64,000 nt of DNA from Microthyrium microscopicum (taxonomy: Eukaryota): contig MU004231.1 in NCBI GenBank assembly GCA_010405405.1, positions 2,619,860-2,683,859 of the forward strand, read 5' to 3'. The notes beneath the pieces are model-generated. The model had not been told where the DNA came from. It saw nothing but the letters and a program-made list of their open reading frames with translations, and did no database searches. Within the stretch, counting starts at the first letter, position 1. Every line of letters starts with the position of its first letter. The position numbers and the translations under genes are program-made. Shown in pieces: positions 14,354 through 56,800 of this stretch.

Positions 14354-14470
14354 TATGTAGCCCCCATGATTTGATACATTCATGATAGCGTCTCAAAGCT
14401 TATTGCAAGGTTTTCCTTCTTCCTCAAACTCCCTGAGCTCTCTGGCGAGCTCAGCACCCAGTGGTATACA

Positions 14471-16065
14471 ATGGAGTCATTATACTCAAGCTACAAAGAG
14501 CTATCGCTATTCGCCTCCATTCCACTCACCTTCAGCCTGATCATCCTGTCTGCCATTGTTCAGAATGTGATTCGACAAATATACTTCGCAGAACCTCATC
14601 GGCCACCTGTGGTGTTTCATCTCGTTCCCTTGATAGGAAGCACCATTCAGTATGGAATGGATCCATACAAGTTTTATATCGACTGTCGGGCCAAATACGG
14701 CGATTGCTTCACCTTCATTCTCCTTGGAACACCCACGACAGTATTTCTAGGACCCGCGGGAAACAATTTCATTTTAAATGGCAAACACGCAGACTTGAAT
14801 GCCGAAGACATCTATGGCAAACTTACTACTCCAGTCTTCGGCAAGGGCGTGGTATACGACTGTCCGAACGACAAGCTCATGGATCAGAAGAGATTATGCA
14901 AAGAAGGCTTCACAACAGAAGCTCTGCGTGCCTACATCCCCAAGTTTGTCAGCGAAGTCGAAAACTATATCAAATCCTCGCCTCGATTCAAAGGGAAAAC
15001 GTCGGGCGAATGCAATATCACCGAAGTCATGGGCGAAATCACCATCTATACAGCATCCTCGTCATTGCAAGGCAAAGAAGTCCGCTCCAAGTTCGACGAC
15101 ACCTTTGCTGCTCTATACCGACATCTTGATGATGGGTTTCAGCCCATCAACTTCATCGCGCCGTGGCTTCCACTTCCACAGAACCGCCGTCGTGACCACG
15201 CACAGCGCGTTATGGAGAAGCTGTACGCTGGCATTATTTCTCGACGCCGCGAAGAAGGCAACGTGAACGGAGAGACAGACATGATCTGGAAATTGATGGA
15301 TGCCGAATACAAAGATGGCAGTGTGATGCCAGATGTTCACATTGCTCGCCTCATGATTGCGCTGCTTATGGGCGGACAGCACAATACAGCTGCCAGTGGT
15401 GCGTGGATTCTGTTGAATTTGGCACATCGTCCTGAGCTTCTGGAAGAGTTGTATCAGGAGCAGTTATCGGTGCTTGGTAACCCGCTGCCAGAGTTGACTT
15501 GGGAGAGTTTGCAGCGGCTGACATTAAGTGGGCAAGTGATTAAGGAGACGTTGAGAATACATAGCCCGATTCACTCGATTATGCGGCAGGTAAAAAGTCC
15601 GATGCCAGTTCCAGGAACCAGCTTTGTTGTGCCACCATCACATGTATTGCTTGCGTCACCTGGGGTACAGTCACGCTCTGAAGAGTTCTTTCCACGGCCA
15701 TTGGAATGGGATCCGCATCGGTGGGATAAGATCGACGCTGGAGAGAAGGTGGAGGATGGCTCGGCAAAGGTAGATTATGGTTTTGGCATGGTGTCCAAGG
15801 CAGTGAGCAGTCCGTACCTACCTTTTGGTGCTGGACGGCATCGCTGTGTTGGCGAGGCCTATGCCTACGCTCAACTTGGGGCCATCATCGCGACGTTGGT
15901 CAGGCTGCTCAAACTAGAGCAACGTGATCCAAAGACACCTGTACCCGAAACAGATTACTCGGTAAGTTGCATTCTCTGACCTGTAGAGCGAAGTTCTGAC
16001 ATATATAGTCTATGTTTTCAAGACCCATGAATCCCGCAGTGGTTTGGTGGCGTCTTCGACAGTGA
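14471..16065 (+). CDS. CYP51: Sterol 14-alpha-demethylase family P450 (CYP51), CYP51C-like; 2 exons, 515 aa
   Basis: PPVVFH, YGMDPY, LTTPVFGKGVVYDCPN, I-helix LMGGQHNTA, KETLR, heme motif YLPFGAGRHRCVG. Intron 15962-16008 then SMFSRPMNPAVVWWRLRQ*. The ORF is intact. Confidence 0.95.
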
Positions 16066-32500: not shown

Positions 32501-33038
32501 ATTATTATAAAGAGAGAAATAGTAAAGTATATAAGATAGATATAGAAGAAGTAAGCTTCTTATTTTAGTATCTTTAAATTATTTTTATCTAGAGTAATAG
32601 TAAAATATTATAATATATAAAGAAACTTAGAGCTTCTATTTTATTTATTAGTTTGCTTAAATTCTAGCTTAATACTATAGGTTATATAGTTAATATCTCT
32701 ATACTTAGAAACCTTAGGTATAAAGTTCTTAAACTCTTTAAGTAGGAAGATATAAGAATAATCTTTATCTAAGTAATTCTTATTAATCTATATTAAAGGA
32801 TAGAGTAGTCTATATTAAGGAATATTTAAGTTAGCATTATACTAAATAGAAAAATAATAGTAATAATACCTAACGATATTATCTATATATTCTCTAATTA
32901 TTATAATAAGATTTTTATAACTTCTATAAGTATCTTAATAGTCTTTAGAGTTATTTAGAGCTTAAATTATTATTAGGTTATAAGAATAGATTAGACCTAA
33001 TAATAATAATAGCTAATTTATAATATTAAGAAGATTCT

Positions 33039-36000
33039 TATTAGAAATAAGTTGTTCTAAGTAGGTAAAGACTATAATTATTATAGTTTAAGTAGATATA
33101 TAAAAATAAGGATAAGAGTAATTACTAAGAAGTTACTTAGACTCTTATAATTTCTTTTCTTTATTACCTAGAGCTATAAGAACTCTACTAAGCTATCTAT
33201 ATTTATAATAAGTTATTATTAGTTAACTTAACTAATAATACTTTATTCTATATAGATATATTCTATTAGTAGTTATCTTAAACTAAAGGTTTCCTAGTTC
33301 TTAATATTATTTTTCTTCTTAAAGCTATTTATCCTAAAGAGTATATTTAAAGGTTCTAATAGATATTTCTTATACTTATATATAGCTTTTAATTATACTC
33401 TATTATACTAAGACTTAAGAGAGAATAAAGCTTAACTAAATATATAGAATTAGGTTATTTATACCTTAAGAAGTCTTTTATAGTCTAGTAATATTCTTAT
33501 TCTTTAGCTTTAGTATATTACTTATTTAAGATAAATAGCCTTCTATTTTTTACTTATTCTAAATAGATAGCTTTCTATTTTCTACTAGTCTTAGGCTATA
33601 ATTAACTATATTAACTTAAACTTAAAGGAGTCTAGTTATTAAGGCCTAATATATTAGTAAAATATTTAATAAGTAGTTATTAGCTTTATTAGGGTCTTAA
33701 TTAGTTAATACTAGCTTTATAAGAGCTAAATTAACCTATTTATAAACGTAGCGTAGTACTACTATTTATATTTAATTAGATCTTATTAAAATACTACTAG
33801 ATAGTTATTCTATATATAGTATAAGTTATCTAGTTATTAAAATATATATAGCTTAACTTAATTAGTTATATTATATTAGATATACTAAATTTATATTAGT
33901 TTAGTATAATTAGCTTTATAGTAGATTAAGTAGCTATAACTTATATATAAAACTACTCTATAAGCCTTATATAGCTCTAGACTAAAGGCGTATTTTAACT
34001 TTATTTTATATTAAAAAGGGTTCTTAAAAGGGTACCCTTTATATATATATCTTAATGCTTCTTATATCTAATTAAGGGTTATTTTATATTATTTATAGTA
34101 AGATATTTAAATTTTTACTTAAAAGTTTAGAGACTCTAAAGCTAAGATTATACTTTCTTATTTAGAAAGTTATAATCTCTTTAAGTACTTACTATACTAT
34201 ATATAACTTTTTTTTACTATAGAAAGCTCTTATAGGTCTTTACTAAGTACTATTATATTAATACTTAGCTATTTTAAGAAAATAGAGAGATTTAGGCATA
34301 AAATAATCCTTTTTACTCTAAATTCTTTATCTTTTATCCTTTATACTCTAAATCTTAAAATAAGTAAAAATTCTATAGTTTTATAAATATATATAAAGAT
34401 TACTATTACTAACCTATTTTACGTTATAGGTTCCTCTTTAATAACTATAAATTTTTTCTTCTTAGTTATTAAGCTATTTAGCGCCTCTTTAGGTTTTTTT
34501 AATCTATTTTAGTATACTTTATATTCTTTTAATCTTTAATAACTTATCTTAACTAATCTATATACTTTTAAACTTATCTTTATTTAAAGTAAGTATTAAT
34601 ATAAATAAGTTACTTAAAGATTTTATTAAAAGTTCTTAAGTCCTTACTAAGAGTAACTTTAATTCTAGTAAGACTATAATAACTATTCCTACTAGTAATA
34701 ATATTATTATATTTTATAATAACTAAATCTTAACTACTAATATTATAGACTTTACTAAAGTAGTTTCTAAAAATAAAATAGAGTAAGAATATACTAATAA
34801 GAGTATTATAGTCTTACTTAGCCTATTATAGTACTACTTAACTCTAAATCCTTATTAGTATTATATAGAGGTCTATACTATATATTTCTTTTCTTCTTTA
34901 ATTACTAAACTTTGCTTTAATCTTAACTTAGAGTATTATTATACTTAGTAAGTTAGTTTAGGTAAATACTTTATTAAATATTTTAATATAAAGTTAACTA
35001 AGGATTATTTAGAAGTAATATCCTATTTTAGCTTATTTTATATTACTTTATATTAATATAGGTAGGTTATTTCTTATTAGAATCTTTATAATAAGGCTAA
35101 GCTTATCTTAGTCTATATTATAATTAATAAGGTTATTTATACCTTTAAGAATAGTTTTTAGAATAAATTATTTTATAAGGATAAGTATATACTTTATAGT
35201 AGTATTTAGTATACTTATAAGTATATAGTAACTTTTTATAAGTTATAAGTACTTATTTTAACTAATTCTAGTCTAGTTTTATATATTTAGATACTAATTA
35301 GTTTATAGTTATATATCTAAGTAGCTAGTAGCTAATTTCTTTTTATTATACTTTAGTATTACTAAGAGTAACTTCTATATAACTTACGTACTTATTAACT
35401 ACTATATAGGTACTAAAGCTATCTAAAAGCTAGTAGATAATAGCTTTTTAGAATTAGAGAAGTATATTATAGCTTATCTAGCTCTCTTAGCTACTAATAT
35501 CTAATTCTATTCTTCTAAGTACTTTAAGTACTATAATATATTATATTTCTAGTGTTAGGACTTCTACTATATTATTAGTCCTTAAGGACCTAACTTATCT
35601 TAGGTAAGTCTTTTTATATCTATACTAAGTTACTTTATATTTAACTATCCTATAGTAACTTACTAATATTAAGAATAATCTAGCTAGTATTCTTTTAAAC
35701 TTTTAAGTACTTCTTAAGCACTATAAGGCTTATTTTAGTACTTTTAAGTACTAAGAAGTTAAGGCCTATATTAAAAAGGCTATTAAGGCTTTTTATAAGA
35801 ATAATTATACTAATAAGAACTATTCTAAGGTTAAGGCTATAGGTCTTATTATAAAGAAGCGTAAGATAAGCTAGGTAGCTTCTTTTTAGGTTAAAATAAG
35901 ATTAGATAAGTTATTTTAAGTCTTTTAAAATTTAGTATTATTTATACTTAGCCTTAATTAGCTAAGTAGAGCTATTTCTTATTATATTAAGTTATTTTAT

Positions 36001-39000
36001 ATTTCTTAAGGATAAATTAGTTAGTAGATACTTTTTTAGGACTTCCTAAGAATAAGTTTATTAGTAGATACTTTTATAGAACTATTATATAGTTAATTTA
36101 ACTCTTAGTTAGAAATTACTTATTTTTTTATATATTTTCTAATATATATTTTAACTTTATTTTATATTAAAAAGAGTTCTTAAAAAAATACTCTTTTTAT
36201 ATATATAGAGACTTATTTTATATATTATTTTAAGTTATTTTATATATTTATAACTTAGTAGTTTTTTTATATACTTATTATCTAGTACTATTTTTAAGTT
36301 ACTTTAGGTTAATTTATTATAATATACGTATAAGAGGGTTAATTTAAGTTCTAATTAGTAAGAAAACTATAAAGTAACTATCTCTCTTCTTTAAAAGCTT
36401 ATCTTAAGTCTTTTAAGTCTTCTTTAACCTTCCTAGTTATCTTTTTAGTCTTATAGGATTAAGATCTATTAATCTATTTATAATATTGTTTAGATATATT
36501 ATTTTATATTTAACTACTTTTCTAATTATACTTATTATTAGTATAATACTTTTCTTAGCTAACTTTACGTAATAGTACTTTAAAGTAGTTAAAGAAAAAT
36601 TAACTATAGGCTCTTAGGTTAATTCTAACTCTAAGTAATCTTTCTATTTTATAAGGTAATAGTATTTACCTCTTTTATTTACTATATACTTTATTATTCT
36701 CTTTATATTATATATATTTAAGTCTTCTAAGTTTAAAGAATCTTATAGTAATATAGACTTCTATAAAAAGTAAGGATTTAGCTTATATAGCTCTAATAGG
36801 AAGATATAAAATATATTATAAACTTATATATTTTTTAAGAGGTTAAGCTAGTAAGTATTAATATTTATAACCTTTATAATCTTAAAGAGGCCTATATACT
36901 TAATATTAAGCTTCTTCTTAATATAAGTAGTCTAAATATTCTTTATATTAAGTAGGACTTAGTTACTAATATTTAAATAAATATCTTTCTTTTCTTTATT
37001 ATACTAGTTAGCTTAATATAATTATACTTTAGCTAATTTATTCCTTATTACGTATTATAAAGATAAGATATAGTTTACTATCTCTTTAGTATTAGGTATA
37101 ATACTTTTTAATAGCGTTTTAGCTAATTTAGAGGTATAGAAGTTCCTTTTAGTATATATAATAAAAGAAGTAACCCTAGTTAATAAGTAAATACTATTAT
37201 TATAGTTAAACTTAGCTAAACTAAGCTATCTTGCTTAATTGTCCTATTCTTAATACTTATAAATTTATAAGTAATACTTAATCTCCTAGTTTAAGCGCTT
37301 TATTTAATTATTAATTTATAAGTAGAATATTATTAAGAGCTTTCTAAGGATAGAAAGGTAATAAAGAAATATTTTTTAGTACTTAAAAATAAAGAGAGGT
37401 CCTTAATTAGATATAATAATATAAGGTACGCTATATAGGTATATAATCTTTTATAAAAAGATCTTAGTAAAGTCTTTTACGTCTATATTTTTTCTTATTA
37501 AGATATAGTAAGCTATTTTAGTTAATTTATTAATAACTACTATAATAGAGTTATAGGTTTAACTATTATAAATACTTAAGAGTAAATCTATAATAAAATC
37601 TATAATAATATTCTCTTATAGCGCTTTTAAGACTAGTAAGGCTATTAGTAATCTTTTTTAAGCTTATCTAATAGATTTATTATATTAGTAATTAAGGTAA
37701 GCTTTATAATAGTCCTTAACGTTCTTCTAGATATAGTTCTAAGTATAGTAGCGCTTAATCTTTTTAAGTATTTTCTTTAACTTCTTATAACTACCTTCTA
37801 TAGCGTCGTTATAGAATCTTTATAGGATTTTCTTCTTTTATAACTCTTCTTTAATAAAAATAAGATTTCTACTTATCTATTTAGCTTTATCTAAGTTATT
37901 CTTAGCTAGAGGAGGTTTATTAATAGCTAAAATTTTACTAGAGCTTATTTTTAGATACTTCTAAGTCTTAGTAAGCTTATCTTAATTTTTCTTAAGTTAG
38001 TTTATAGTAAGATATTACGTATTAATATTAATATATATAATAATAAAGTTTATAAGTTTAATAGCGTTAGTTTTAGCTATAAGAACGTTATTAAGCTATA
38101 ACTTATTATAGAGTAGGTTAAGTAATACTTCTATAGTCTTTTTCTATTCTTTTTAGCTTTTTTTAATATAGTTTAGACGTCTTAAGGATCTATTAGCTAG
38201 ATTTATTTTGCCTAGATAGTACTTAATATTAAAATTATATTCTAAAAGTAAATCTACTTATCTTATATATATTAATAATATTTTTAGTATTATTTTAAGT
38301 AATTTAAGGTTTATATAGTCTATTAAGACCTAAAATTAGTCTAGTAAGCCTTATAAGTACTTTCTAAATACTTTTAAGGAATCTATAATTACTAAGAACT
38401 TCTATTATAAAGTCCTATAGTAGCTCTCTAGTAAAGATAATTTCTAAGAATAAAATATAATAAGTTTCTATAGGCTATTCTAGCCTTTATTACGCTATCT
38501 TTAGCTTAATATCTTATAAATTACCTTTCTAGAGGTATTAGTTTCTAACTATATAAGAAGTATAGAGTTAAAATAGGCTAAAATTAGTATATTTATAAAA
38601 GAATTCTTTAGTTTATTAAAAGAATCTAAGGCGTCTAGTAGTAATTTAATATTTATAGATTCTTTTTACTATAGCTTTAAGCCTTTTAGAGCTTAACCTA
38701 ATTCTTTCTAAGTTAAAGTATTTAGTAGTATAGTAATATAGAAGAATCTAATAATAAATTAATAATAATAGTTTATAAAGCTAATAAATTTTTTTACTTA
38801 GTATATATTATATAATTTTAGCTAATTTAGATATATATTAACTTATAACTAATTTATAGTAGTATTATTTAGAGTTATAATATAACTTAGATATTTTATA
38901 CTACTAGTATAAAACTTATACTTAAATAGTTTTATGTATAGATAGTACTTTATAAGTTATTATAAGACTTCTTAGACGTCTTTAATATATTACTTCTTAG

Positions 39001-41816
39001 TTTTAGAGTAAATAAGGATATTATTAAGGTAAATAATATATATTATGTCTATTAAGCCTCTTAATACTTAATTAATATATACTTAGAAAACTATAAGAGT
39101 ATTTATAAGTCTAAATAGGACTACTATATACTTAAATATTCTATATTTAGTCTTAAATATAGTCTTCTACTTATTATTATCTTTAATACGTAAATAGTAG
39201 TAAGCTTTATATAAGTTAAGGCTAGTAAAGAACTTAGCACTTTAAAATTTATTTAAAGACTTTTTAATAAGAGATAATATATACTAATTCTTAATAATAA
39301 TATTGTTTAGGCCTTAGTAGTCTATATAAAGTTATAATATTTTATCTTTCTTCTTTATAAAGAGAATAGAAGCTTTAGTAAGGAATCTTAACTTCTAAAT
39401 CTAACTTTTTATAAAGTAAGTATCTAAGTACTTACGTAGAATAACTAACTTAGCTTTTAAGAGGCTATAAATAAATCTATATAGTACTATAGCGCTTAGC
39501 TTTAAGTTAATCTTAAGGTTTTATAGACTATATTAAGCTAGTTTAAGTATATCTTATTTACTAAAAGCTTTAGTAAATTATAAATACTTACTTAAGAGCT
39601 CTTTTATAAATAAATTTAGGTTTAGTAACTTAATTAGATAATTAAATAGTTAAAATAAACTATTCTAAGTTAACTTAGAAAACTTATTAGTATTTATAGT
39701 CTCTATCTTATTATAGAAGCTACTAAAAGGTTACTTTTATATAAGGATCTTATTCTTAAAGTCTAAAAGAGGATTCTACTTCTTTAACTAGAGTATTCTT
39801 ATAATAATAAAGTAATATAGAGAGTTTATAATATAAAATAACTTTATTCTAGTCTTAGAGAGGCTATTTAAGTTAACTACTATTACTATAGCTTTTATAA
39901 CTTTATAAATATATATAGGAGTACTATCTAGATATATTATAAGTATCTTAAAAAGAAAAATAATATAGAGCTAAAGTCTTTTAGCTAGCTTAATATCTAT
40001 AATATTAAAGTATAACTTATAATTAACTATAATATCTAAGAATAAGGCCTTTTAGCTTTTATTATTTCTTAGACTTCCTTATAAGTATATTTACTTTAAC
40101 TTTAGTCTTATAAAGTCTACCTTACTAAGTAAGTTATTATTCTTAGTTCTTAATATCTTTAGAATATATATAATAATAGTTTTATAAAGCTATTTAGCGC
40201 TAGGCTAGGCTATTTTATTAATAAAAGAGGCTACTAAGTCTTAGTTTATAACTTTATAGCCTTATTTTTTCTTTATAGCTTAGAGTATTCTATTTTAAAG
40301 TAGAGTTTACTATATTTAAAGTATTTAACCTTTTTTAGGTTAGACTCTAGTAAAATATCTATATTTTAAGTTATTTTAAATATAGCTTATTCTACTTTAC
40401 TATTCTTTAAAGAATAAAAGAACTTTCTAGGTATTCTTAGCTTTTTTAAGCCTTTCTTATGCTTATACTTATTTCTTAAAGAGTATAAGTATTATTTTAG
40501 AAAAAGTTATTCTAGGTTTATTTTTTTAAAGATAGAATAAGCCTTAGCCTCTATAGAACTAAGAATCTAGTATAAGTTAGCCTTTTTAAGAGCTTCTTTA
40601 ACTATAGTAGTAGTAAACTTCTTATTAAAAAGAATCTTTTTTTATATATTCTTAGAGAGGTCCTTATAGAACTAAAAAAGGTAACCCTTCTAGTTATTAT
40701 ACCTTTATTTTTTCTATAACTTAAGAAGGTTATTATAGAGCTCTTAAGAATAGTATTAACCTAATTTAATTATTTAAGACTTCTTAAAAGTAATATATTC
40801 TTATTTTATAAAGTAGCCTAAATAGCCTAACGCATAGTCTTAGACTATTTATTATATTTTTTAGAATTCTAGGTCCTAAGACTTCTTATAGAGAATAAGA
40901 TTATTTAATTTTATTTATAATAGCCCTTTCTTAAGCTAATTACGTCTATAAATATACTAGTAAAGTTATTAGTTATAAGTACTTTCTTAATAAAAAGATT
41001 TAATAAACTTTTATTTAACGTTATTAACTTAGAATATATATTCCTAAAGACTCTTCCTTTTATAAAGCTCTATCTTAGGCTTATCTTAGTTTAAAGGTCC
41101 TAAAAGGATAAGAGCTTAGCTTAAAAGATACTAATTAAGTCTTATTGTATTAACTTAGCTAAAGTTCTTTAATTCTTAGGTAGTTTTAAGTTTACTAAAC
41201 TAAATTATTCTAGCTTTTATTATTAGCTTTTATACCTTAAGCTTTAGCTTCTTTTTATTAATAAGTATATTAAGTTTTTCTTTATAATACGTTATAAAGT
41301 TATTTTAAGTCTTTCTAAGCCTAAGTAAATTAGGGTTAGCTAGTTTAATATTAGATAAGTCTAATAGACCTCTAAATATATTAGTTTAGAGTATAATAGA
41401 TACTAGTAACTCTTAGCCTAATAGTTAAGGCTACCTAAGTCTTATCTAAGTGCTAAGGTCTAAATATTTACTATTAAATATAGTTTCTAATTAGATAAAA
41501 GATAAAAATAATTTCTTTAGGTACTTAAGGATTAAGAAGTAATTACTATATTAGAAATAGGTTATTCTAAGTAGGTAAAGACTATAATTATTATAGTTTA
41601 AGTAGATATATAAAAATAAGAATAAGAGTAATTACTAAAGAGTTACTTAAACTCTTATAATTTCTTTTCTTTATTACTTAGAGCTATAAGGACTCTACTA
41701 AGCTATCTATATTTATAATAGGTTATTATTAGTTAACCTAACTAATAACGCTTTATCCTATATAGATGTATTCTATTAGTAGTTGTCTTAAACTAGAGGT
41801 TTCCTAGTTCCTAATA
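33039..41816 (-). mobile_element. Ty3/Gypsy chromovirus family A, copy A1, full length 8778 bp, RIP-inactivated
   Basis: 268-bp LTRs at 33039-33306 and 41549-41816 (TGTTAG...CCTAACA RIP'd) with 5-bp TSD ATTCT on both sides. Minus-strand remnants: gag knuckle (~40300), RT KTIFKTKYRIFKY...YLNNILIYSK (~39000-39170), integrase LAKFNYNNS...VTSF (~37160-37230), chromodomain YLIK*KDY...T*EP (~36605-36665). Confidence 0.93.
34562..35907 (+). pseudogene. RIP-decayed intron-containing accessory gene inside chromovirus A1, antisense to gag-pol
   Basis: Long codon-like + strand frames in the 3.2-kb spacer between the chromodomain and the 3' LTR. 52-bp intron gtaagt...ttaac...tatag at 35604-35655 and a branch/acceptor ending at 35308. 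C-terminal KKRK. Boundaries are approximate. Confidence 0.55.
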
Positions 41817-43499: not shown

Positions 43500-45371
43500 T
43501 AGTACTTCTAGAAAATAACTAATATATAGGATATTTAAGGAGTTATAGCTAAAGCTAATTAATAAGAGGCTACCTTCTATTAAGAATATATTATAGCCTA
43601 ATCGTAAGATAATATAACTAGTTAAAAAGAGCATAAAACTACGTAAGAAGAAGAATCTAAAAAAAAAAAGGAAGGTAAGATTAGATATAGGTATATTTAG
43701 ACTAAAGATAAAGAAGGCAAGATTAAATATAGGTATATCTAGACTAAAGAAAAAGAAGGTAAAATTAAATATAGGTATATCTAGATTATATAAAAGATAA
43801 ATTAGAAAGTATATAGAATAATATATAACTATTACTAACTTTATTTAATATTAGAACTAGATATAATATTAAAGAAGCTACTCTACTTAAGGAACTAAAC
43901 TATACTAAAGAGAATATAACTTATCTCTCTTAGCTTAATCTTAAAATTAAGTATAAGTTCTAATAAAAGTTTAAACTATTAAAGAGTAAATAATAATATT
44001 AGCTAATACTAAAAGAGATAAAGATCTTAACTATATATATATTTCTTAAAGACCTTTATAATTCTAATATACTCTCTACTAAATACTATTTAACTTACTA
44101 TTAATAAACTACTCTAAAAAAATTAGTACTTACTAACTAAAATACTCTTAAGAGTTAATTTTAGTAGAATATACCTATTATTTAATAACTTTTTAAATAT
44201 TAAAAGTACTTTTTATAATTTAGTAATAAATAAGTCTATATTTATATAATATATAATAAAAAACTTAGTAATAGAAAAATCCCTTTTATATATTCTATAA
44301 GTAATTTATTTATTAAATATAAGTATCTATACCTAAATAAACTATATAACTTAACTCTAGTAGAGGAATAATTAATCTTCTTAAACTATCTATATAGACT
44401 TATTACTTATTAGGTATATAATAAGAAGGATAATACTATAAAGAGAGCTTACTATAAGCTTAAAGGCTAAATTACTATTATCTTAGCTTAGGATCTTGCT
44501 AGTTTAATAATATCTATCTTACTATATAATTTTATTAAACTATAAGAATTAATTTATATATCTTTCTTAAGACTAAATAAACTATAGCTAACTTAACTTA
44601 CTAAACTTGTCTAAGTATAGCCTTAAAAAATACTTATAGCCTTATATTAGCTAAAAGCTAATAATTATTTATATACTAATATTAAAATTAATAAATCTAA
44701 AGTTTCTAAAATGCTTTTAGTACTTAATTTAAATATACTTCTTATCCTTTATAATAATATATTAAATTTAGAACTAACTACGAAAGAGCTTATAAATAAA
44801 GCTATAATTAGCCTTATAAATATAGATAATTTAAGAACTATAGAAGAAGAAATAGAGCATAAAAGGAAAATTATTAATAATCTTTTTTAATTTTACTTAT
44901 TAATTAATACTAACTTTAATAAAGAAGATAATAAGAATCTAAGAATTACGTAATAGCGTTTTAAGACTATTTAACTCTTATAAGATATAAAGGAGTTTTA
45001 AGATAATAAGGATAAGGATAAATTATTACTAATAATATTAAATGTATTTATAGATCTTAATAGAATAGATAAAGAATACTAGCTATTATTATCTCTAGAG
45101 TTTCTATAAAATTTTATTACTAGTAAAGATACTAAAACGCTATTTATTAAGTAAGTATAGCTAATAAATAGTAGCTTTACTAACTTAAAAGACCTAAGTT
45201 ATTACCTAAAAATCTTTTTAATACTATTTTCTTTTAGTCTTAAAAAACCTTATAGATTAAAAAAGTTACCTAGTATTTATATTTATATAATTTATTAGAG
45301 TAAGGTATATAATTACCTTAGTTTAGATACTTTTAAGCTTATAAATCTAGAAGTATATATAAAATATAATA
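43500..45371 (+). mobile_element. Helitron Rep/helicase gene remnant, 5' part (DUF6570 region)
   Basis: LVEE*LIFLN...KLKG*ITII...ALY*LKANNYLYTNIKIN (44355-44700) resembles DUF6570 (..ALxWLKxNNxLYxDIxI). FTNLKDLSYYLK...LFSFSLKKP (~45175-45250) reads as RIP'd ...TLFPFGxGGP. Confidence 0.78.
43671..43787 (+). repeat. 42-bp tandem repeat (~2.8 copies) in the Helitron ORF region
   Basis: Units gaaggyaagattaratataggtatatytagactaaagawaaa start at 43671, 43713 and 43755. Confidence 0.85.
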
Positions 45372-47334
45372 TACTACATTGGCAAAAGTTTGGGTTAGCT
45401 GTAAAACAAGAGATATCCTGGCAGGACGAGCAGATCCTAGTAGGATAAGTAGTTCTAAAAGATATCTTATTATAGTTCTAAAACTATATTTATTATTATT
45501 TAACTTCCTAGTTGGGTTTAGCTTATATTTTATATACCGTTTTGTAGCCCTAGATTAGGGCTACATTATTATGTAATCTATATTACCCTAGCCCTAATAG
45601 CTATCAAGATGTAGCAATTATCATTTTGCCTAAAATGACTTTTATAATAACTTCCTAATTAGGCTAGCTATAGTAATAAAACTAGAACCATTAGATAGAG
45701 CTTATTAAGACGAGTATTATTATATATAGGTTATAGATTATTAAAGCCCTATTGCCGTTTGTAGCCTAGATATAAAAAGTGTGGCTTAATAACCTAAAGT
45801 TTAAGTAGCGTTATTAGAAACGAGTCGTTCTAAGTAGGTAAAGACTATAATTATTATAGTTTAAGTAGATACGTAAAAATAGAGATAAGAGTAATTACTA
45901 GGGAGTTACTTAGACCCTTATAATTCTTCTTCTTTATTACTTAGAGTTATAAAGACTCTATTAAGCTATCTATATTTATAATAAGTTATTATTAGTTAAC
46001 TTAACTAATAATACTTTATTCTACGTAAATATATCCTATTAGTAGTTATCTTAAACTAGAGGTTTCCTAGTTCTTAATATTATTCTTCTTCTTAAGGCTA
46101 TTTATTCTAAAAAGTATATTTAAAGATTCTAATAAATATTTCTTATACTTATATATAACTTTTAACTATACTTTATTATACTAAGACTTAAAAGAGGATA
46201 AAACTTAACTAAATATATAAAATTAGGTTATCTATATCTTAAGGAGTCTTTTATAGTTTAGTAATATTCTTATTCTCTAGCTTTAGTATATTACTTATTT
46301 AAGATAGATAGCTTTCTATTTTTTACTTACTCTAAATAGATAGCTTTTTATTTTCTATTAGTCTTAGGTTATAATTAACTATATTAACTTAAACTTAAAG
46401 AAGTCTAGTTATTAAGGCCTAATATATTAGTAGGATATCTAATAAGTAGTTACTAGCTTTATTAGGGTCTTAATTAGTTAATACTAGCTTTATAAGAGCT
46501 AAATTAACTTATTTATAAATATAGTATAGTACTACTATTTATATTTAATTAGATTTTATTAAAATACTACTAAATAGTTATCTTATATATAGTATAAGTT
46601 ATCTAGTTATTAAAATATATATAGCTTAACTTAATTAGTTATACTATATTAGATATACTAAATTTATATTAATTTAGTATAATTAGCTTTATAGTAGGTT
46701 AAGTAGCTATAACTTATATATAAAACTACTTTATAAGCCTTATATAGCTCTAGACTAGAGGTATATTTTAACTTTATTTTATATTAAAAAGAGTTCTTAA
46801 AGGAGTATTCCTTATATATATATCTTAATGCTTCTTATGTCTAATTAAGAGTTATTTTATATTATTTATAGTAAGGTATTTAAATTTTTACTTAAAAGTT
46901 TAGAGACTTTAAGGCTAGAATTATACTTTCTTATTTAGGAAGTTATAATTTCTCTAAGTACTTACTATATTACGTATAACTTCCTTTTACTATAGAAAGC
47001 TCTTATAGGTCTTTACTAAGTACTATTATATTAATACTTAGCTATTTTAGGAAAGTAGAGAGATTTAGGTATAAAATAACCTTTTTTACTTTAAATTTTC
47101 TATTTCTTATTTTTTATACTCTAAATTTTAAAGTAAGTAGAAATTCTATAGTTTTATAAATATACGTAAAGATTACTATTATTAACTTATTTTATATTAT
47201 AAGTTCCTTTTTAGTAACTATAAATTTTCTCTTTTTAGTTATTAAACTACTTAGTATCTTCTTAAGTTCTCTTAATCTATTTTAATATACTTTATATCTT
47301 TCTAACCTTTAATAACTTATCTTAACTAATCTAT

Positions 47335-48680
47335 ATACTTTTAAACCTATCTTTATTTAAAGTAAGTATTAATATAAATAAGTTACTTAAAGATTCTATT
47401 AAAGGCTCTTAGGTCCTTACTAAAGGTAACTTTAACTTTAGTAAGATTATAGTAACTATTCTTACTAGTAATAATATTATTATATTCTATAATAACTAAA
47501 TCTTAACTACTAATATTATAGATTTTACTAAAGTAGTTTTTAAGAATAAGATAGAGTAAGAATACGCTAATAAAAATATTATAGTCTTACTTAGCTTATT
47601 ATAGTATTACTTAACCTTAAATCCTTATTAGTATTATATAGAGGTCTATGCTACGTATTTCTTTTCTCTTTTAACTACTAAACTTTACCTTATTTCTAAC
47701 TTAGAGTATTATTATACTTAGTAAGTTAGTTTAGGTAAGTACTTTATTAAATACTTTAATATAAAGTTAACTAAGAATTATTTAGAAGTAATATCCTATT
47801 CTAGCTTATTTTATATTATTTTATATTAATATAGATAAGTTATTTTTTATTAGGACCTTTATAATAAGGCTAAGCTTATCTTAATTTACGTTATAATTAA
47901 TAAAGTTATTTATATTTTTAAGAATAATTCTTAGGATAAATTATCTTATAAGGATAAGTATATACTTTATAGTAGTATTTAATATACTTATAAGTATATA
48001 GTAACTCTTTATAAGTTATAAGTACTTATTTTAACTAATTCTAGTCTAGTTTTATATATTTAAATACTAATTAGTTTATAGTCGTATATCTAAGTAGCTA
48101 GTAGCTAATTTCTTCTTATTATATTCTAGTATTATTAAGGGTAGCTTCTATATAACTTATACGTTTATTAACTATTATATAGGTACTAAAGCTACCTAAA
48201 AGCTAGTAGATAATAGCCTTTTAGAATTAAAAAAGCGTATTATAGCTTATTTAGCTCTCTTAGCTACTAATATCTAATTTTATTCTTTTAAGCGCTTTAA
48301 GTACTATAATATACTATATTCTTAGCGTTAAGACTTCTATTATATTATTAGTCTTTAAAAACCTAACTTATTTTAAGTAAGTCTTTTTATATTTATACTA
48401 GGTTACTTTATATTTAACTATTCTATAGTAACTTACTAATACTAAGAATAATCTAGCTAATATTCTTTTAAACTCTTAAGTACTTCTTAAGTATTATAAG
48501 GCCTATCTTAGCGCTTTTAAGTACTAAGAAATTAAGGCCTATATTAAAAAGGCTATTAAGGCTTTCTATAAAGATAGTTATACTAATAAGAACTATTCTA
48601 AGATTAAGGCTATAGGTCTTATTATAAAGAAGCGTAAAATAGGCTAGGTAGCTTCTTCTTAGGTTAAAATAGGGTTAGAT
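47335..48680 (+). pseudogene. Second copy of the antisense intron-containing accessory gene (in A2)
   Basis: Same sequence as 34562-35907 at offset 12773. Intron 48377-48428 joins the best frames in phase 0: ...KPNLF*|*LTNTKNNLAN...AYIKKAIKAF...IIKKRK. Confidence 0.55.
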
Positions 48681-49882
48681 AAGTTATTTTAAGTCTTTTA
48701 GAATTTAGTATTATTTATACTTAGCCTTAATTAGCTAAGTAAGGCTATTTCTTATTATATTAAGTTATTTTACGTCTCTTAAAGATAGGTTAGTTAATAG
48801 ATATTCTTCTAGGACTTCTTAAGAATAGATTTATTAGTAAATACTCTTATAAAACTATTATATAGTTAATTTAACTCTTAGTTAGAAATTACTTATTCTT
48901 TTATATATTTTCTAATATATATTTTAACCTTATTTTACGTTAAAAAGGATTCTTAAAGAAGTACTTCTTCTATATATATAGAAACTTATTTTATATATTA
49001 TTCTAAGTTATTTTATATATTTATAACTTAGTAGTTTTTCTATATACTTATTATCTAGTACTATTTTTAAGTTACTTTAAGTTAATTTATTATAATATAT
49101 ATATAAAAGAGTTAATTTAGATTCTAATTAGTAAGAAAACTATAAAGTAACTATTCTTCTTCTTTAAAAGCTTATTTTAAGTCTTTTAGGTCTTTTTTAG
49201 CCTTCTTAGCTATCTTTTTAGTCTTATAGGGTTAAGATCTATTAACTTATTTATAATATTATTTAGATACGTTATTTTATATTTAATTACTTTTCTAATT
49301 ATATTTATTACTAGTATAATACTCTTCTTAGCTAACTTTACGTAATAGCGCTTTAAAGTAGTTAAAGAAAGGTTAGCTATAAGCTTTTAAGTTAATTCTA
49401 ACTCTAGGTAATTTTTCTATTTTATAAGGTAGTAATATTTATTCCTTTTATTTATTATATACTTTATTACCTTCTCTATATTATATATATCTAGGTTTTT
49501 TAGGTTTAAAGAATCCTATAGTAATATAGACTTTTATAGAAAGTAGAAGTTTAGCTTATATAGCTCTAATAGAGAGATATAAAATATATTATAAACTTAT
49601 ATATTCTTTAGGAGATTAAGCTAGTAAGTATTAATATTTATAACCTCTATAATCTTAAAAAGACTTATATACTTAATATTAAGCTTCTTCTTAACGTAAA
49701 TAGTCTAAATATTCTTTATATTAAGTAGGACTTAGTTACTAACGTTTAAATAAATATTTTTCTTTTCTTTATTATACTAGTTAGCCTAGTATAGCTATAT
49801 TTTAGCTAATTTATTTCTTATTACGTATTATAGGGATAGAATATAGTTTACTATCTCTTTAGCGTTAGGTATAATACTTTTT

Positions 49883-50755
49883 CATCGTGAAAAAATTATT
49901 ATTGATTTGAGTTATCTGATAGCACTAATAATAGCTATAACTATTATACGTAGTGGGTCATCTGAGGAGTTAGAAATAACTTTAAAATAACTGCGATAAC
50001 CTACGATAACCTAAAGATTAATAAATTAGATAAAAGGATTTTACTAAAGTTCTTAAGTCAAATAACTAATTAACTAATCTAGCTATGCGCCTAAAGATCT
50101 TGCTATAGGCTAAAATATAGGGTTTAGTACCTTTGGTTTAATCTAGAAATAAAAAGGTTAAAAAACCATAGAGTTAGCAAGGATTCTAGAAATAAATAAA
50201 AAAAGGAACATCAAAGTCTAAAAAACGTTTTTAGGCTGCAACTAGTAACGGCTTGATAATAAATTCTAATTTAAATTATAACTTACTTATCTAAATGAGG
50301 GCTATCTAATGGTATACTTTTTATAATTATAGCAATTATATTTAAAAAGTTATTAATAGAAATTGAAGAATAAAAAATGTATTTATCTTTGAACAATTAT
50401 AACTTAATCAACTTTTGAGATATAAAAATAATAAAAACATATCTAGATAGAGCTCAATGAGCTCTAAATAGTAATATAAAAATTATACCTTAAAGTTGCC
50501 TATTCGGGTTACGATGTCTCCGATAACCACGATGGATTTTAAATAACTACGATGGATTTTAAATAACTATAATAGATTTTCGATGTATTTAAAATAACTA
50601 CGATAAGTTTAAAATAACTAGAATAACTAGAATTATTTAGTACTTTATTCGATGCATATCCGATGCGCATCTAATGTCTTTAAAATAACTAAAATAACTG
50701 TTTTACCGTTGGATACGTAGTCCAATTTGCGATGCATGATAATTTTTTCACGATG
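49883..50755. mobile_element. 873-bp non-autonomous DNA element with CATCGTG termini and 2-bp TSD (TT)
   Basis: Perfect 17-bp TIR catcgtgaaaaaattat. The empty site in A1 (atactttttaatagcg, 37101-37116) shows only TT duplicated. Many aaataact motifs, including a 20-bp tandem at 50531-50570. Confidence 0.88.
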
Positions 50756-50818
50756 TTAATAGCGTTTTAGCTAATTTAGGGATATAGAGGTTCCTTCTAG
50801 TATATATAATAAAAGAAG

Positions 50819-53800
50819 TGTAATAAGCTATGAAACTTAGAGCGAGCAGATAATTAGATTGTATTCTAGAATCTACAAACGAGAGAGAGAGAGAAGAAGA
50901 TCTAGAAGAGCTATAGATCTATAAGGAAAGTAAGTCTGCTTAGTAGATTCTTAGGCGCGCTAACCCTCCTAAGTTTAGCGCGTAATCTTATAATAAGATC
51001 TCTCTTATAATACTACTATAAAGCCTATAAAAAGGAATTATTATATAATCCCCTCCTTTAGTATAGCTCTCTAGGCTATAGACTACTAATTATATCTACT
51101 TTCCTAATCTATTCTATTCTAATCTAGTCTAGTCTAGTTTAGTTTAGTCTAGTCTAGTCTAGTCTAATAAACTTTTAGTAATAAATAATATTTTAATCCT
51201 TCTATAGTATAATACTAACCTTACTAGTCGTTTAGAGCATCTTAATCTCTAGCTTACTAAGGCAACTATTAAGAAGTATTAACGAACCTTAAGATATCCT
51301 TAGAATACTCTAGTTCTTAAGTCCTAGTAGTCTAGTAGTTAGTAATCTTATTAATATAAGGAAATTAGTAGTATAATTATTTTACTTCTCCTAATTAGTA
51401 GGAATGCTATTAAAGTTATAATTAATACTATTGCTAGTAGGCTCTAGTATTAGTAGTATCTAGGTAGGATATAGGCCTAGCTTACTAGAGTACTAAGCAT
51501 AAAACTTAGTAATAAGCTTTAGCACGTTCTTAGTAACTATCTAATTATACTATTTAGCTTTATTATAACTAGTATACTTAATCTTATATTATAGCTTCTT
51601 ATACTAACTAGTAAAGTAGCTATTAATAATAGCGTTAATAGACTATTTATTATTATTTATAGTCTCTCTAATAACTACTAGTAGTAAGTTAGTATGCTTA
51701 AGTAGCTTAGCGTTATTTATAATATAGTAAAGAACCTAGGCGTAAAAGATATTATATATCTTTATAGAAGTAAGGAGATTAAGTTTATAGGTAATAGTAT
51801 TAATCTTTTTAATTATATAGAAGGGGCCTATATTCTTATCGTCTAGAGTTTTTAAGGAACGTAATATAGAGTAGTTCTATATATCTAAGTAAACCTAGTC
51901 GCCTAGTAATAAGTCTAGAGCTATATAGTAGTAGTAGTTAGTATATTCTACTTACTAAGCTTATACCTAAATTAATTGCTCTATTAGATAATTATATATC
52001 TTAGCGTAACTCTTCTATATTATATCTATATTAATAGCTTCCTTATTAGCTACTATAGAGATATTTATAGGTTTTAGGAGGTGATATAAGGACTTAAGGC
52101 CTAATTAAGGGTTAAATCTATTTTAAGCTTTAAAAGGTATAACTCCTATAGTAGCGTTTATAATAGAATTAACTATAAATTTAGTAAAGGGTAGAAGGGC
52201 TACTTAGTTATCTTAATCCTAGTTAATAAACGCGCGTAAGAACTACTTAAGTATAGTAACTAAGATTTTTATTATACTATTAGTTTTAGGGTAAAATATT
52301 ATACTAAGGTAGAGTATTATACCTATACGTTTATATAAGCGCTTTTAGAATATAGAGGTAAATTAGCTACTATAATCTAAAAGAATTATTAATAGCTAGC
52401 TAATAAGCTTCTATACATAGTTAATAAAGGCTAATACTATTAAGTCTATAGAGAGGTTTAGTAGCAAAATAAAGCATTAAGTCTATATATATTAGTTAAT
52501 AACTACTATAACGTGCTAGTAAATTATACCTTAGTATAAACAATAAGGTAATAAGATAGCGAAATTAATAAAGATATTAGACTATACGCGCTTAAGGAGA
52601 GGAAATTATTATAAGAAGCCTTACTTCTTTTAGCAAACTAGTTTAGTAAATACGTACTTATAGCCCTTAATAAAGCTCTTAATATTCTATAATATCTTAG
52701 GCTATTAGTAATTCTCTTATAAGTAGTAGTAAGTTATTACTACTCTACTATAGCTTATAGCTTTATAGCTATATACGCTTTATATAGCGTGACACTAAAG
52801 CTTTCCTTAAGAAATAAAGATTTAGTTATAATAAAGGATTATTTTATTAGTAGCTATTATATAGTCTCTAAGCTTAATCTACTCTTATTTTAGAGTATTA
52901 AAGGATAAAAAGAGCTAGTAGTTAGTTTTAGCGTAGTAAATAATAATTATTATTTTATTATACTCTATTATGTTTATAATATTTTATAAAAACTAGTTGC
53001 TATTAAAATCTAGGAATAAGTTATCTCTTAAGAGATTAAGTAGCTTACTCTTAGGCATCTTATTATTACTAAGAGACTCTTCTATAGAATTAAGTAGCTT
53101 ACTTATAAGATTAGAAATATCTAATTTATTCTAAGTAATAGTAGCTAGGTATAGTATTAAGAGGCAAGTAGGTTTAATAAGTAATATAGCTAGCTTTACT
53201 ATATAGTCTATATTAAATTAGTATAGGAATAGTAAAGGTTAGACTTATTAAGAGACGTAAGGGTTATTATTACTTTATAGGATATTTTATAACTAATAAG
53301 TAAAGGCATCTACCTTTCTATTAGCTATACTTAGTTAGTACTTTATCTTAAAGTAAAACTAAGAAAGAAACTTAGCCTATCTAGCTTATTATTAAGAGAG
53401 ACGTTTTATTATTATAAACGTCTAAAAGTTATAGTAATTAGAGAATACTTAAATAGAGTTAATAGAGCTAAATAGCTCTAGTTCCTATTCCTTAAATATA
53501 TAGATAATAGCTAGAAGTTCTTTATTATAAATATTATAATTATATTCTACTAGAGTTATCTTCTTTAAGAGGTATATAACTAGGTAAAGCTTCCTATTAT
53601 TACCCTTTTAAGAGAGAACTATAGCATAAACTTAATCTAAGGTATTTATTTCTAGCTATATTTCTTTAGTATAGTTAAAGTAGCATAATATCTTAGTAGA
53701 TATAAAGTTTATTTTTAGCTTCTTAAACGCGTATTCCTCTAGCCTATTAAGGTTTTAAAGGAAAATTACTATAGCGTCCTTCTTTATAAATACTATTAGT

Positions 53801-56800
53801 AGTGCTATAGTCTTTAAATATTTAAGAATAAATTAGTAATAGAAGTTAGTAAAGCTAAGAAAAGCTTAAACGTCTTTAACTAAAGAGGAACGTTACTAGT
53901 TAACTATACTTTAAACCTTCTCTAGGTCTATCTTAATGCCTTTAGTAGTAATAATTAAGCTAAGGTATTTAACTTATTAAGTATTAAATTTATACTTCTA
54001 GATATCTAAGTATAATCCTACTTTACTTATTGCTTCTAAGACTAGATAGGTATAAGTAGTATAGCTAGCTTTAGTATTACTAAAGATTAATAGATTATCT
54101 ATATAGCCTATAATGAAGTTATTAAGGTAATTAATTAGAATATAGTTAAAATAAGCTTAGAAAGTTTTTAGGGCTTTAATAAAGCTAAAGGGCATAACTT
54201 TAAATTTATATAACCTATAGTAAGTTAGGAATATAGTTTTATATTTATTACTAGGTTTAATATAGATATATATAAAGGTAGTAATAACGTTAAACTTAGA
54301 GAAGTATTTTGCGTAATAGATATAGGTTAAAGTTTCTAGTAGCTATAAAGAAATATTATAATTCTTTTATATAATCTTATTAAGTCTATAGTAATTAATA
54401 TAAACTTAAATTTCTTTTCCTAGTTTGTATGTATATAGTATTAGTATAGTGTAATGTAATTTGCTAGCTTAAACTTAATCTTAACTAAGTATTTAATTAA
54501 TATATTATTTAATAATAAGGAATTCCTAGTAACCTAGGCTATTATAGTAGCGTTTAGGGATTATAGCGTTTAGGATAATATTAATAGAGTAATCTTATTT
54601 GCTATAATATAGTATAAGTTTATTGCCTAATTTTAGGTTAAAGATATCTATATAATAGTAATATTCTTTTAGTAAGTATTTAAGAATCTCTTCTCGTAAG
54701 AAGGAAGGTTTATTATATTTTTCTTGCTACTTTTTAAAGTCCTTAGGTAAGATTTTACCTAAATTAATAGTAATATCTTCTTTTAGTATAGGATTTAGAT
54801 TTAGAGGTTTCTTATCCTTTTTGTTTTTAAAATTATTAGGCTAGATTTTACTAAATTACTAGCCTTATTCTAGTAGTTTAATAAAGGTAATAGCACTAAC
54901 TATAGTAACATTCTTAAAGTAAGAATTAGTTAGATTAACTAAATAGCCTTTATAATCTATAAAGATTAGGTAACTAGCTAGTAGGTAATATACTAAGTAG
55001 TAGTCTAAATTAAAGAGGATTTACTTCTTTCCTTCTTTAAGAGTAACCTTATAGAGGTTAATCTATAGGTTACTAAGAATAATATTATAACTAGCTACGT
55101 CTATAATAAAGTAGTAGATTTGTTTAATATGCCTTCCTAAATAAACGTTAACTATAGTAGCTTTATTAACCTTTATAATAGCTTTACTATTAGCTAATTA
55201 TATAATTTAGAGAGTAGAGAGATTAATAGTAAGAATCTTGTATTATTTAATAAAGTTAGGGTAAATAATTCTTATTACTCTACTCTCTATATCTATAAGG
55301 ATATTAATTTTTAAGTAGTAGTCTTACTTTAGAAAGAATATAGTACTATAAGTAGTCTACTAATTACTTACTATAGGTATAGTAGCTACTTCTTAAGGGT
55401 AGAAATTGTATACTATAGAGGTAAGGAATATCTTAATAATAGCTAACTTAGTATTATTAAATATAATAGGCTCTAGGGATAATACTTATTAAAGGTTAAC
55501 TTCTAGGCACTAGATAGTCTTATTAACCTTATATTAGATTTATTCTTTTATAAGAACTAGCTTAGAGTTAGGTTTATCCTTCTTTTATTACTAATTATAT
55601 GCTTTTTACTTATTTAGCTTCTTCGCGCGTCTCTATAGAGAAGCTTTTAGTTTTTTATATTATTACTATAATTATATTTATTATAATTATCCTTTATGGT
55701 TAGGAACTAAGGAGATTAAGTAGTAATTTAATTATAGATAGTAGTAAACTCTATAATAATAGCTATAACCTTTAGTTAGATTTTAGTATCTAATAAGGTA
55801 TCTCTATTCTTATATAGTGCTAAGTTATACTAATAGCTATAGCCTTTCTCTTTATACTTTATATAATAGTTATTAGCCTTTAAGGCATTATAAATGTCTA
55901 AAGGGTAGTTAAACTTAAGTTTTTATTTACTACTCTTAGCTATTAGATAATTATTATTATTATAGCTTTATAGATTAGTAGAGAGGACGTATTTAATATA
56001 ATAAGTAATAGTATATAGGCTCTTAAGGAAATTCGTAAATATTTTTAATTCTATAAAGAGTACTCTCTCTACGAATTTTAGGAGTAGAAAGGGATATATT
56101 TTAATAATTTTATCTTAATTACTAAGCTTAGCTTTTCGTAAGTTCTCTAAGAAATAAGCTAGAAATTATTTAAGCTTCTTAGTAGGCTTTATTATAGCTT
56201 CTTAACTTTTAAGCTAGGTCTTAGTAGTAATATAGCTATCTTTAATACTATACTTATAATCTAGATTAGACTATATTTCTACTATAGATAAATATAGGTT
56301 AGTTAACTTATAATTACTTTATTTATTAATAGTACTAAATACCTAATTCTCTATTACTCCTTAGATAACTTAGATTTTAGAGGCTTTTATAAGATAGACT
56401 TATATATTATTATTAAGATAGTCTAATACTTTGCCTTTCTAAGTATAATACTTCTACTTATTCTTTCCTAAGAAGAGTAAAGGTTTATTACTTTATACTT
56501 TAAGGAGAAAGGCGCTACTAATTAAGTTAAAGTTAAAGAAAGGAGTAGTTTAATGCAAGTCTAATACCTCTAAGGGTATATTTAAGTTAGGTTAGTCTAT
56601 ATCCTAAGTTAGAGAGGTTTAGTAGAATAGATTATTATCTACTAACTTATTATAATTAAGATAGAGATTAGTTACCTTAATAGCTAAGAGTTTCTTTTAG
56701 AGAGCGTTAACCTAAGCTTAAAGGATAGTAGCTTCGTCTACTTTCTTCTATAGAGCTTTATAATATTTACTAATCTTATTAACGTAAGTAGTAAGTATTT

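Follow-up and report, generated by a model that had tools for sequence, protein, structure and literature searches.

An antisense gene, brtn, has been described between pol and the 3' long terminal repeat (LTR) of the fungal retrotransposon Boty from Botrytis and Sclerotinia (Zhao 2011, Virology 417:248, as cited in PMC7264820, PMC8365987, PMC4227169 and PMC5987419). The brtn sequence serves for the BcGypsy1 family, with further extra open reading frames (ORFs) being mentioned in other Botrytis families (PMC8365987), and a Monilinia transcript is similar to BRTN of B. cinerea by BLAST (PMC5987419). Among plants, the Retand elements have pol-to-3'-LTR regions of 2.9-6.6 kb with antisense TRP28 ORFs and frequent tandem repeats (PMC11963269). 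Antisense additional ORFs (aORFs) are also found in the Tat-type Grande (gene 23) and RIRE2 elements, with the Grande protein being nuclear and expressed from its own promoter (PMC11963269; PMC7264820). Here we describe a 64,000-nt stretch of the Microthyrium microscopicum genome (contig MU004231.1, positions 2,619,860 to 2,683,859; hereafter the window), in which two copies, A1 and A2, of an 8.8-kb chromovirus-type Ty3/Gypsy family carry a long internal region between pol and the 3' LTR. We see about an even chance that this region holds the relic, killed by repeat-induced point mutation (RIP), of a ~1.3-kb antisense protein-coding gene belonging to the same pol-to-3'-LTR class (aORF-3R).

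The retroviral genes HBZ and asp likewise run antisense to gag-pol and have their place toward the 3' end of the provirus. With these genes, found in HTLV-1 and HIV-1, respectively (PMC11963269), the putative relic shares an analogy of layout only; the hosts belong to another kingdom and there is no sequence relation. Boty too is an ascomycete Ty3/Gypsy element; a chromodomain-bearing pol and an extra gene on the opposite strand behind pol, ahead of the 3' LTR, would be further common features, and its hosts, like the present one, harbor RIP-mutated copies, there with 12-20% GC (Table S2 of PMC8365987). However, BcGypsy1 is 6.4-7.0 kb long with little room behind pol (the same table), whereas the element studied here measures 8,778 bp, with a 3.2-kb region and 268-bp LTRs. 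By its size it is not of the Boty/BcGypsy1 type and corresponds to none of the B. cinerea families listed in the table of PMC8365987. The plus-strand translations gave no match of any kind in large protein libraries, the comparison with BRTN being by description only. With Retand, Grande and RIRE2 the element shares a long pol-to-3'-LTR region, a putative antisense coding region and tandem repeats; however, those elements are from plants and Retand is a non-chromovirus lineage (PMC11963269), while the present one shows a weak chromodomain match and resides in a RIP-active fungus. The Transposase_28 domain (PF04195) of Retand-type TRP28 was not listed for any of nine translations of the region at E-values up to 5, with RIP damage lowering the sensitivity of this comparison. 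A literature search for antisense ORFs in fungal Gypsy elements turned up no fungal case beyond Boty among the papers listed. [quoted passage not shown]

The 3.2-kb region forms an integral part of the element's interior, situated between pol and the purine-rich tract at the 3' LTR (Table 1). The end of pol falls at ~36.44-36.56 kb and, in both copies, ~3.2 kb of internal sequence (counted from 33307 in A1) separates it from the 3' LTR. The spacing of ~3.2 kb previously proposed between the chromodomain end of pol and this LTR in A1 and A2 is thereby borne out by the coordinates of the LTRs, the target-site duplications (TSDs) and the Pfam matches. The tails of the two copies (33025-37112 and 45798-49885) align with 0 gaps, and transitions account for 369 of their 377 differences. 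For 33025-37500, three DNA runs from one sample, X1-X3, yielded upward of 1,000 contig pieces each, covering all 30 depth bins and with differences that are almost all transitions. At the variant sites listed (40 of 902 positions), the alternative letter is carried by 3-19 contigs, in the spacer and in pol alike. In run X1, the summed depths of the spacer (550-1020) and of pol (690-1170) are close to each other, summed contig depth being a poor measure of copy number. The gapless tails combined with the contig coverage indicate that the region belongs to a multi-copy family rather than being a private insertion. As would be expected of an aORF-3R gene, the region is found in both window copies and in the contigs of X1-X3. 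A single X2 contig joins 35256 to 36893 with 10 other letters between them, and lacks the 3' part of the gene-like block together with the end of pol. Every copy seen is mutated beyond function, and the region is today only AT-rich repeat DNA.

The repeat-filled part of the window (28.5-64 kb; GC 0.19-0.27) is RIP-saturated: it has a TpA/ApT ratio of 1.70 and a (CpA+TpG)/(ApC+GpT) ratio of 0.085, the initial 27 kb having 0.85 and 1.22, while the gene-bearing positions from 1 to 28 kb have a GC of 0.43-0.51. Since every TAA, TAG or TGA in such DNA may be a RIP product, the openness of a frame is not usable as a test for coding potential. We therefore relied on measures that survive RIP, namely three-base periodicity, codon usage and the asymmetry of stops between strands, and calibrated them on the element's own pol and gag as well as on an unrelated element of the window. 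In a chi-square test of base against position modulo 3, the 729 nt of block 1 yield a chi-square of 34.8 (p 5e-6) and the 216 nt of block 3 one of 33.3 (p 9e-6), in comparison to 6.7 (p 0.35) for the spacer at 33326-34300 and 6.3 (p 0.39) for the LTR. A sliding scan with 300-nt windows returned values mostly between 13 and 23 for starts at 34450-35050 and 35500-35725 in both copies, and was flat elsewhere in the spacer. Over the end of pol the same scan gives 14-20 in A1 (36625-36925) and 21-26 in A2 (36625-36775), and the highest of the A1 pol windows listed reaches 27. The periodicity at 34450-35350 and 35500-35900 is thus on the level of that in pol. The distribution of bases over the codon positions is also like that of pol, with the first position rich in A, the second lowest in G and the third rich in T. 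Taken together, we consider it likely that the spacer contains former coding sequence.

It is conceivable that the region is instead a non-coding 3' untranslated or regulatory stretch, in which cryptic repeats and local purine richness generate the periodicity and the codon bias. Short tandem or near-tandem repeats are indeed scattered through the 3.2 kb, and within block 3, where the word AAGGCT also recurs, Tandem Repeats Finder (TRF) detects a weakly repeated 10-nt unit (35699-35752). Moreover, plant Retand elements commonly have tandem repeats in their long pol-to-3'-LTR regions (PMC11963269), and the homology searches described below are all negative. However, block 1 is periodic over ~900 nt even though TRF finds no repeat between 33913 and 35188, and the repeat periods observed in the region (10, 19, 27, 32, 34 and 40 nt) would not yield a clean three-base signal. 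Nor would such an origin fit a base-by-codon-position pattern equal to that of pol. Hence, we regard a purely non-coding spacer as rather improbable.

Codon usage provides a further line of evidence for a coding relic. We used a codon log-odds model for which pol from the other, unrelated element of the window was the sole training set, with 500 simulations serving as the null. All of the three best-scoring segments in the region belong to the plus strand, successively to its frames 2, 0 and 1. The segment of block 3 (35662-35865) attains a score of 14.1, above both the 99th percentile (11.6) and the maximum (12.9 of 500) of the null, while that of block 1, with 10.2, exceeds the 95th percentile but not the 99th. 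Codon-score segments are also present in A2, at 47368-47958 (15.6) and 48435-48644 (17.4).

The same measures bear on which strand carried the gene. When applied to known coding sequence, the strand test favors the true strand in 28/30 and 25/25 windows of 216 nt and in 8/8 and 6/6 windows of 729 nt. In block 3 the plus strand is ahead by 8.5-14.5 bits, and in block 2 the plus-strand frame, with log-likelihood ratios of -2.2 and -1.6, lies 3-7 bits above any minus-strand frame. In block 1, 14 stops interrupt the plus-strand frame, whereas its codon-for-codon antisense counterpart contains 23. The controls, 26 windows of known coding sequence damaged by RIP, average 18.2 stops in the true frame and 26.9 in the antisense frame, and the latter has fewer in only 2/26. 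A plus-strand reading is favored because both codon usage and stop density point to the strand antisense to gag-pol. Support for it is good for the final 216 nt and moderate over the initial 730 nt. With their extent of 34562-35871, the blocks fall into the interval bounded by the end of pol and by the LTR, whose start is at 33306; this is the position typical of aORF-3R genes.

An extra ORF on the sense strand, be it env-like, another third ORF or an extension of pol, would have to draw on the closeness of the two strands in block 1: there the runner-up is minus-strand frame 1, the frame of pol itself, only 1.5-2.5 bits behind. Likewise, the minus-strand segments at 35066-35374 (10.8) and 35659-36042 (9.3) score near the ceiling of the noise. 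However, the count of stops in block 1 runs the other way, and in block 3 minus-strand frame 1 scores -15.6 and -10.1 as against +15.2 and +12.2 for plus-strand frame 1. Furthermore, the density of stops in minus-strand frame 1 is 12-14 per 100 codons at 35875-36325, so this frame is not continuous with pol, and no periodicity is seen in 35800-36250. This makes a sense-strand ORF highly unlikely. Thus, of the gene-like region that the initial annotation placed opposite to gag-pol (34562-35907 in A1 and 47335-48680 in A2), the block itself is in place and periodic in both copies; however, it has no open frame and its strand is moderately supported over block 1.

Several results weigh against an antisense gene. 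The frame of block 1 is not open, having 14 stops in 243 codons, and, with simulations as the reference, the minimum number of stops over all 243-codon windows reaches a p of only 0.046. The codon score of this block is about 0 or negative, and the lead of its plus strand over the minus strand, at only 1.5-2.5 bits, is far smaller than the at least 13.6 bits by which real coding windows of 729 nt lead. The best segment of block 2 (35358-35537) scores 9.2, under a null 95th percentile of 10.7, and with the model from the unrelated element's pol the block's segment scores 9.1, which is not significant. A1 and A2 are not independent witnesses either. Reversing RIP with the two copies raises the GC from 0.20 to 0.247 with none of the stops shown being removed, and this approach is ineffective because the mutations are common to both. 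Homology searches point in the same adverse direction. Pfam searches with six plus-strand and three minus-strand translations of the region returned no family at E-values up to 5, and word-index protein searches recovered no homologue, whether the query was the 243-residue block in frame 2 or the 72 residues at the C-terminus. A full phmmer search, which covered the plus-strand frame-2 block of 243 residues, retrieved nothing from 1.84 billion representatives. Although RIP damage lowers the sensitivity of such protein and domain searches, the equally RIP-damaged pol still finds relatives at an E-value of 3e-89; homology searches hence do work on the RIP-damaged coding sequence of a conserved protein, and their null result for the blocks counts against the gene.

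The intron-like motif between blocks 2 and 3 belongs with these adverse points, as it occurs at chance frequency. An antisense gene can retain its introns through retrotransposition, and a short intron at this place is possible: its removal would connect frame 0, ending at 35603, to frame 1, starting at 35656. However, the plus and minus strands of the 35.5 kb of RIP DNA hold 31 and 20 occurrences of GTAAGT, respectively, with three on each strand in the region itself. The full motif of donor, branch and YAG (45-110 nt) is completed by 16 of the 31 plus-strand and 7 of the 20 minus-strand donors. On the plus strand this is a rate of ~1 composite motif in every 2.2 kb, and the two in the 3.25-kb region are thus what chance predicts. 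In the case of the 52-bp GTAAGT...AG intron claimed earlier, the motif is thus present in both copies and the phase arithmetic is right, whereas its occurrence is no rarer than expected by chance (23 in 35.5 kb). The second plus-strand motif, at 34948-35012, was rejected as an intron since splicing would exit the low-stop frame.

The gene-like part is bracketed in both copies by two direct repeats, R1 and R2. On reverting transitions, their core becomes a G+C palindrome of 14 nt, after which comes a TA run; with 0 occurrences of the core motif expected, the window has 4, all at these places. Either a module gained by capture or a unit with a regulatory role may be marked by these repeats. The idea that they are the LTRs of a nested element was discarded, since they are short and show no TSD at their ends. 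One way of reading them is as scars of capture, with the coding relic being a passenger, i.e. a fragment from a host gene or from another mobile element that the master copy took up in reverse orientation and that had no role in its life cycle. This would accord with the bracketing of the coding-like part, with the absence of any known retroelement domain from it and with the naming of cellular-sequence transduction as a possible origin of such regions (PMC11963269). However, blastn and tblastx comparisons of the region with the other repeats of the window produced only short low-complexity matches and no similarity. Depth shows no step at the repeat boundaries and no sign of an independent high-copy module, with the caveat noted above for depth as a measure of copy number, and no TSD is visible at the ends of the 62-nt repeats. 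Sequence alone cannot separate such a passenger from an accessory gene of the element because both predict an antisense coding relic; we judge the passenger unlikely. A more specific form of the accessory-gene reading holds that the family independently acquired an intron-bearing antisense gene unrelated to brtn, as a 2.1-kb module marked by the palindrome-bearing 62-nt repeats, and that its nuclear product acted on the expression or targeting of the element. This, too, we put forward only as a tentative and rather doubtful proposal; were it true, antisense accessory genes would be recurrent in fungal Gypsy elements, as they are in plants.

If the relic was indeed an accessory gene of the element, then in the active family an internal promoter of its own would have driven its transcription, opposite in direction to the genomic RNA, and a protein serving the element would have been its product. 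By analogy with the nuclear Grande protein, this product might have been a nucleic-acid-binding or regulatory factor. The KKRK in the C-terminal translation of block 3 would fit such a factor; however, it proves nothing because RIP itself makes lysine codons, and where Lys now stands the ancestral codons could equally have specified Glu, Arg or Gly. The reading of the ancestral protein as acidic, Cys-rich and helical with a nuclear localization signal rests on a free choice of ancestral codons. The nuclear anti-silencing, targeting or regulatory role suggested on this basis found no backing from Pfam, the word-index searches or phmmer, which yielded neither a homologue nor a domain. The function put forward is thus speculation; with the gene dead in this genome, the locus alone teaches nothing on function.

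The antisense-gene reading, if true, would extend long pol-to-3'-LTR regions with antisense genes past plant Tat/Retand and Boty, and a second, unrelated fungal case would suggest that antisense genes confer a repeatable advantage on retrotransposons. The analysis also illustrates that periodicity and stop asymmetry can still reveal coding relics where DNA is saturated by RIP. GC-rich copies of the family in related strains offer a concrete target.

Table 1. Features of the two element copies and of the region between pol and the 3' LTR (positions in the window; frames as coordinate modulo 3).
Feature	Positions	Strand	Remarks
A1	33039-41816	minus	full-length Ty3/Gypsy element, 8,778 bp
3' LTR of A1	33039-33306	minus	268 bp, four-way LTR alignment
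Purine-rich tract, polypurine tract-like	33307-33325	minus	A/G run abutting the 3' LTR, read from sequence; putative function
Spacer without coding signal	33326-34450		no three-base periodicity
Tandem repeats, 32-34-nt units	33518-33586 and 33835-33913		TRF, in spacer without coding signal
Direct repeat R1	33991-34050	plus	about 62 nt, G+C palindrome core
Coding-relic block 1	34562-35290	plus, frame 2	periodicity and stop asymmetry
Candidate block 2, weak	35271-35603	plus, frame 0	codon score
Intron-like motif, 52 nt	35604-35655	plus	GTAAGT...TTAAC...TATAG, both copies
Coding-relic block 3	35656-35871	plus, frame 1	ends ..IIKKRKIS, then TAG
Direct repeat R2, partner of R1	36147-36206	plus	60 nt, 90% identical to R1
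pol (reverse transcriptase, RNase H, integrase, SH3, chromodomain)	36440-40294	minus	Pfam matches; full of RIP stops
gag-like coding block	40300-40914	minus	codon-score segment 22.9 (model A), 15.3 (model B)
5' LTR of A1	41549-41816	minus	268 bp, four-way LTR alignment
A2	45812-63124	minus	same element as A1, split by 8.6-kb insertion at 49886-58466
3' LTR of A2	45812-46079	minus	268 bp, four-way LTR alignment
A2 counterpart: 3' LTR, 3.2-kb region and pol end	45812-49885	minus	91.0% identity over 4077 bp
R1/R2 counterparts in A2	46764-46823 and 48920-48979		core motif matches 46786-46813, 48942-48969
Gene-like part in A2	47335-48644	plus	codon-score segments
A2 5' part (pol, gag, 5' LTR)	58467-63124	minus	beyond 8.6-kb insertion
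5' LTR of A2	62857-63124	minus	268 bp, four-way LTR alignment

Both copies have direct-oriented LTRs and short TSDs, as is characteristic of Ty3/Gypsy elements. The TSDs are of 5 bp, ATTCT/ATTCT in A1 and AGCGT/GGCGT in A2, with the latter pair being one transition apart. In a self-comparison of the window, 33038-37112 pairs with 45811-49885 and 37159-41814 with 58467-63122 (90.3% identity over 4657 bp), and the short terminal repeat appears in four copies. Translations were read through RIP stops as X, and Pfam was run on all six frames; matches were obtained in only one of these, on the minus strand, including RVT_1 (1e-8), RT_RNaseH_2 (3e-9) and SH3_Tf2-1 (2.9e-7). The order of the pol domains on this strand is reverse transcriptase, RNase H, integrase; Integrase_H2C2 is matched with an E-value of only 0.1, and the rve core was not detected in the Pfam search of pol. 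The chromodomain (PF00385) match at 36599-36712 is located at the position expected at the integrase C-terminus, in RIP-damaged sequence. It is sub-threshold in both A1 (E 0.0029, 17.9 bits) and A2 (E 0.052, 13.9 bits), with the cut-off lying at 25.1 bits. The gag-like block has no Pfam match.

The RIP-damaged pol translation matches Gypsy polyproteins, the closest relative found being P0001 (ENA, 1411 aa), which shows 31% identity over 36% of the query at the E-value given above. P0001 is itself rich in Lys, Asn and Ile and is located on a 10.6-kb contig, which might reveal what follows pol in a relative that is less damaged; no locus for it was found in the metagenome contigs or viral contigs searched. 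The insertion that splits A2 contains another LTR element with 220-bp repeats at 50826-51045 and 58254-58473. Its coding-like signal extends over 51364-57620 on the minus strand, and it lacks a long spacer behind this.

Two further stretches with RIP damage or a RIP-like composition were observed in the window. Between A1 and A2, a RIP-damaged coding-like block on the plus strand at 43537-45433, with a codon score of 30 over 1650 nt, is probably part of a further mobile element. The other is an AT-rich block of 2.5 kb at 11750-14250, with a GC of 0.22-0.33 and a RIP-like TpA/ApT ratio of 1.9, which has no match to the other repeats of the window except for one 80-nt hit. It lies directly upstream of a long plus-strand ORF (14375-15979), which, judging by eye, we take to encode a CYP51-type sterol demethylase.

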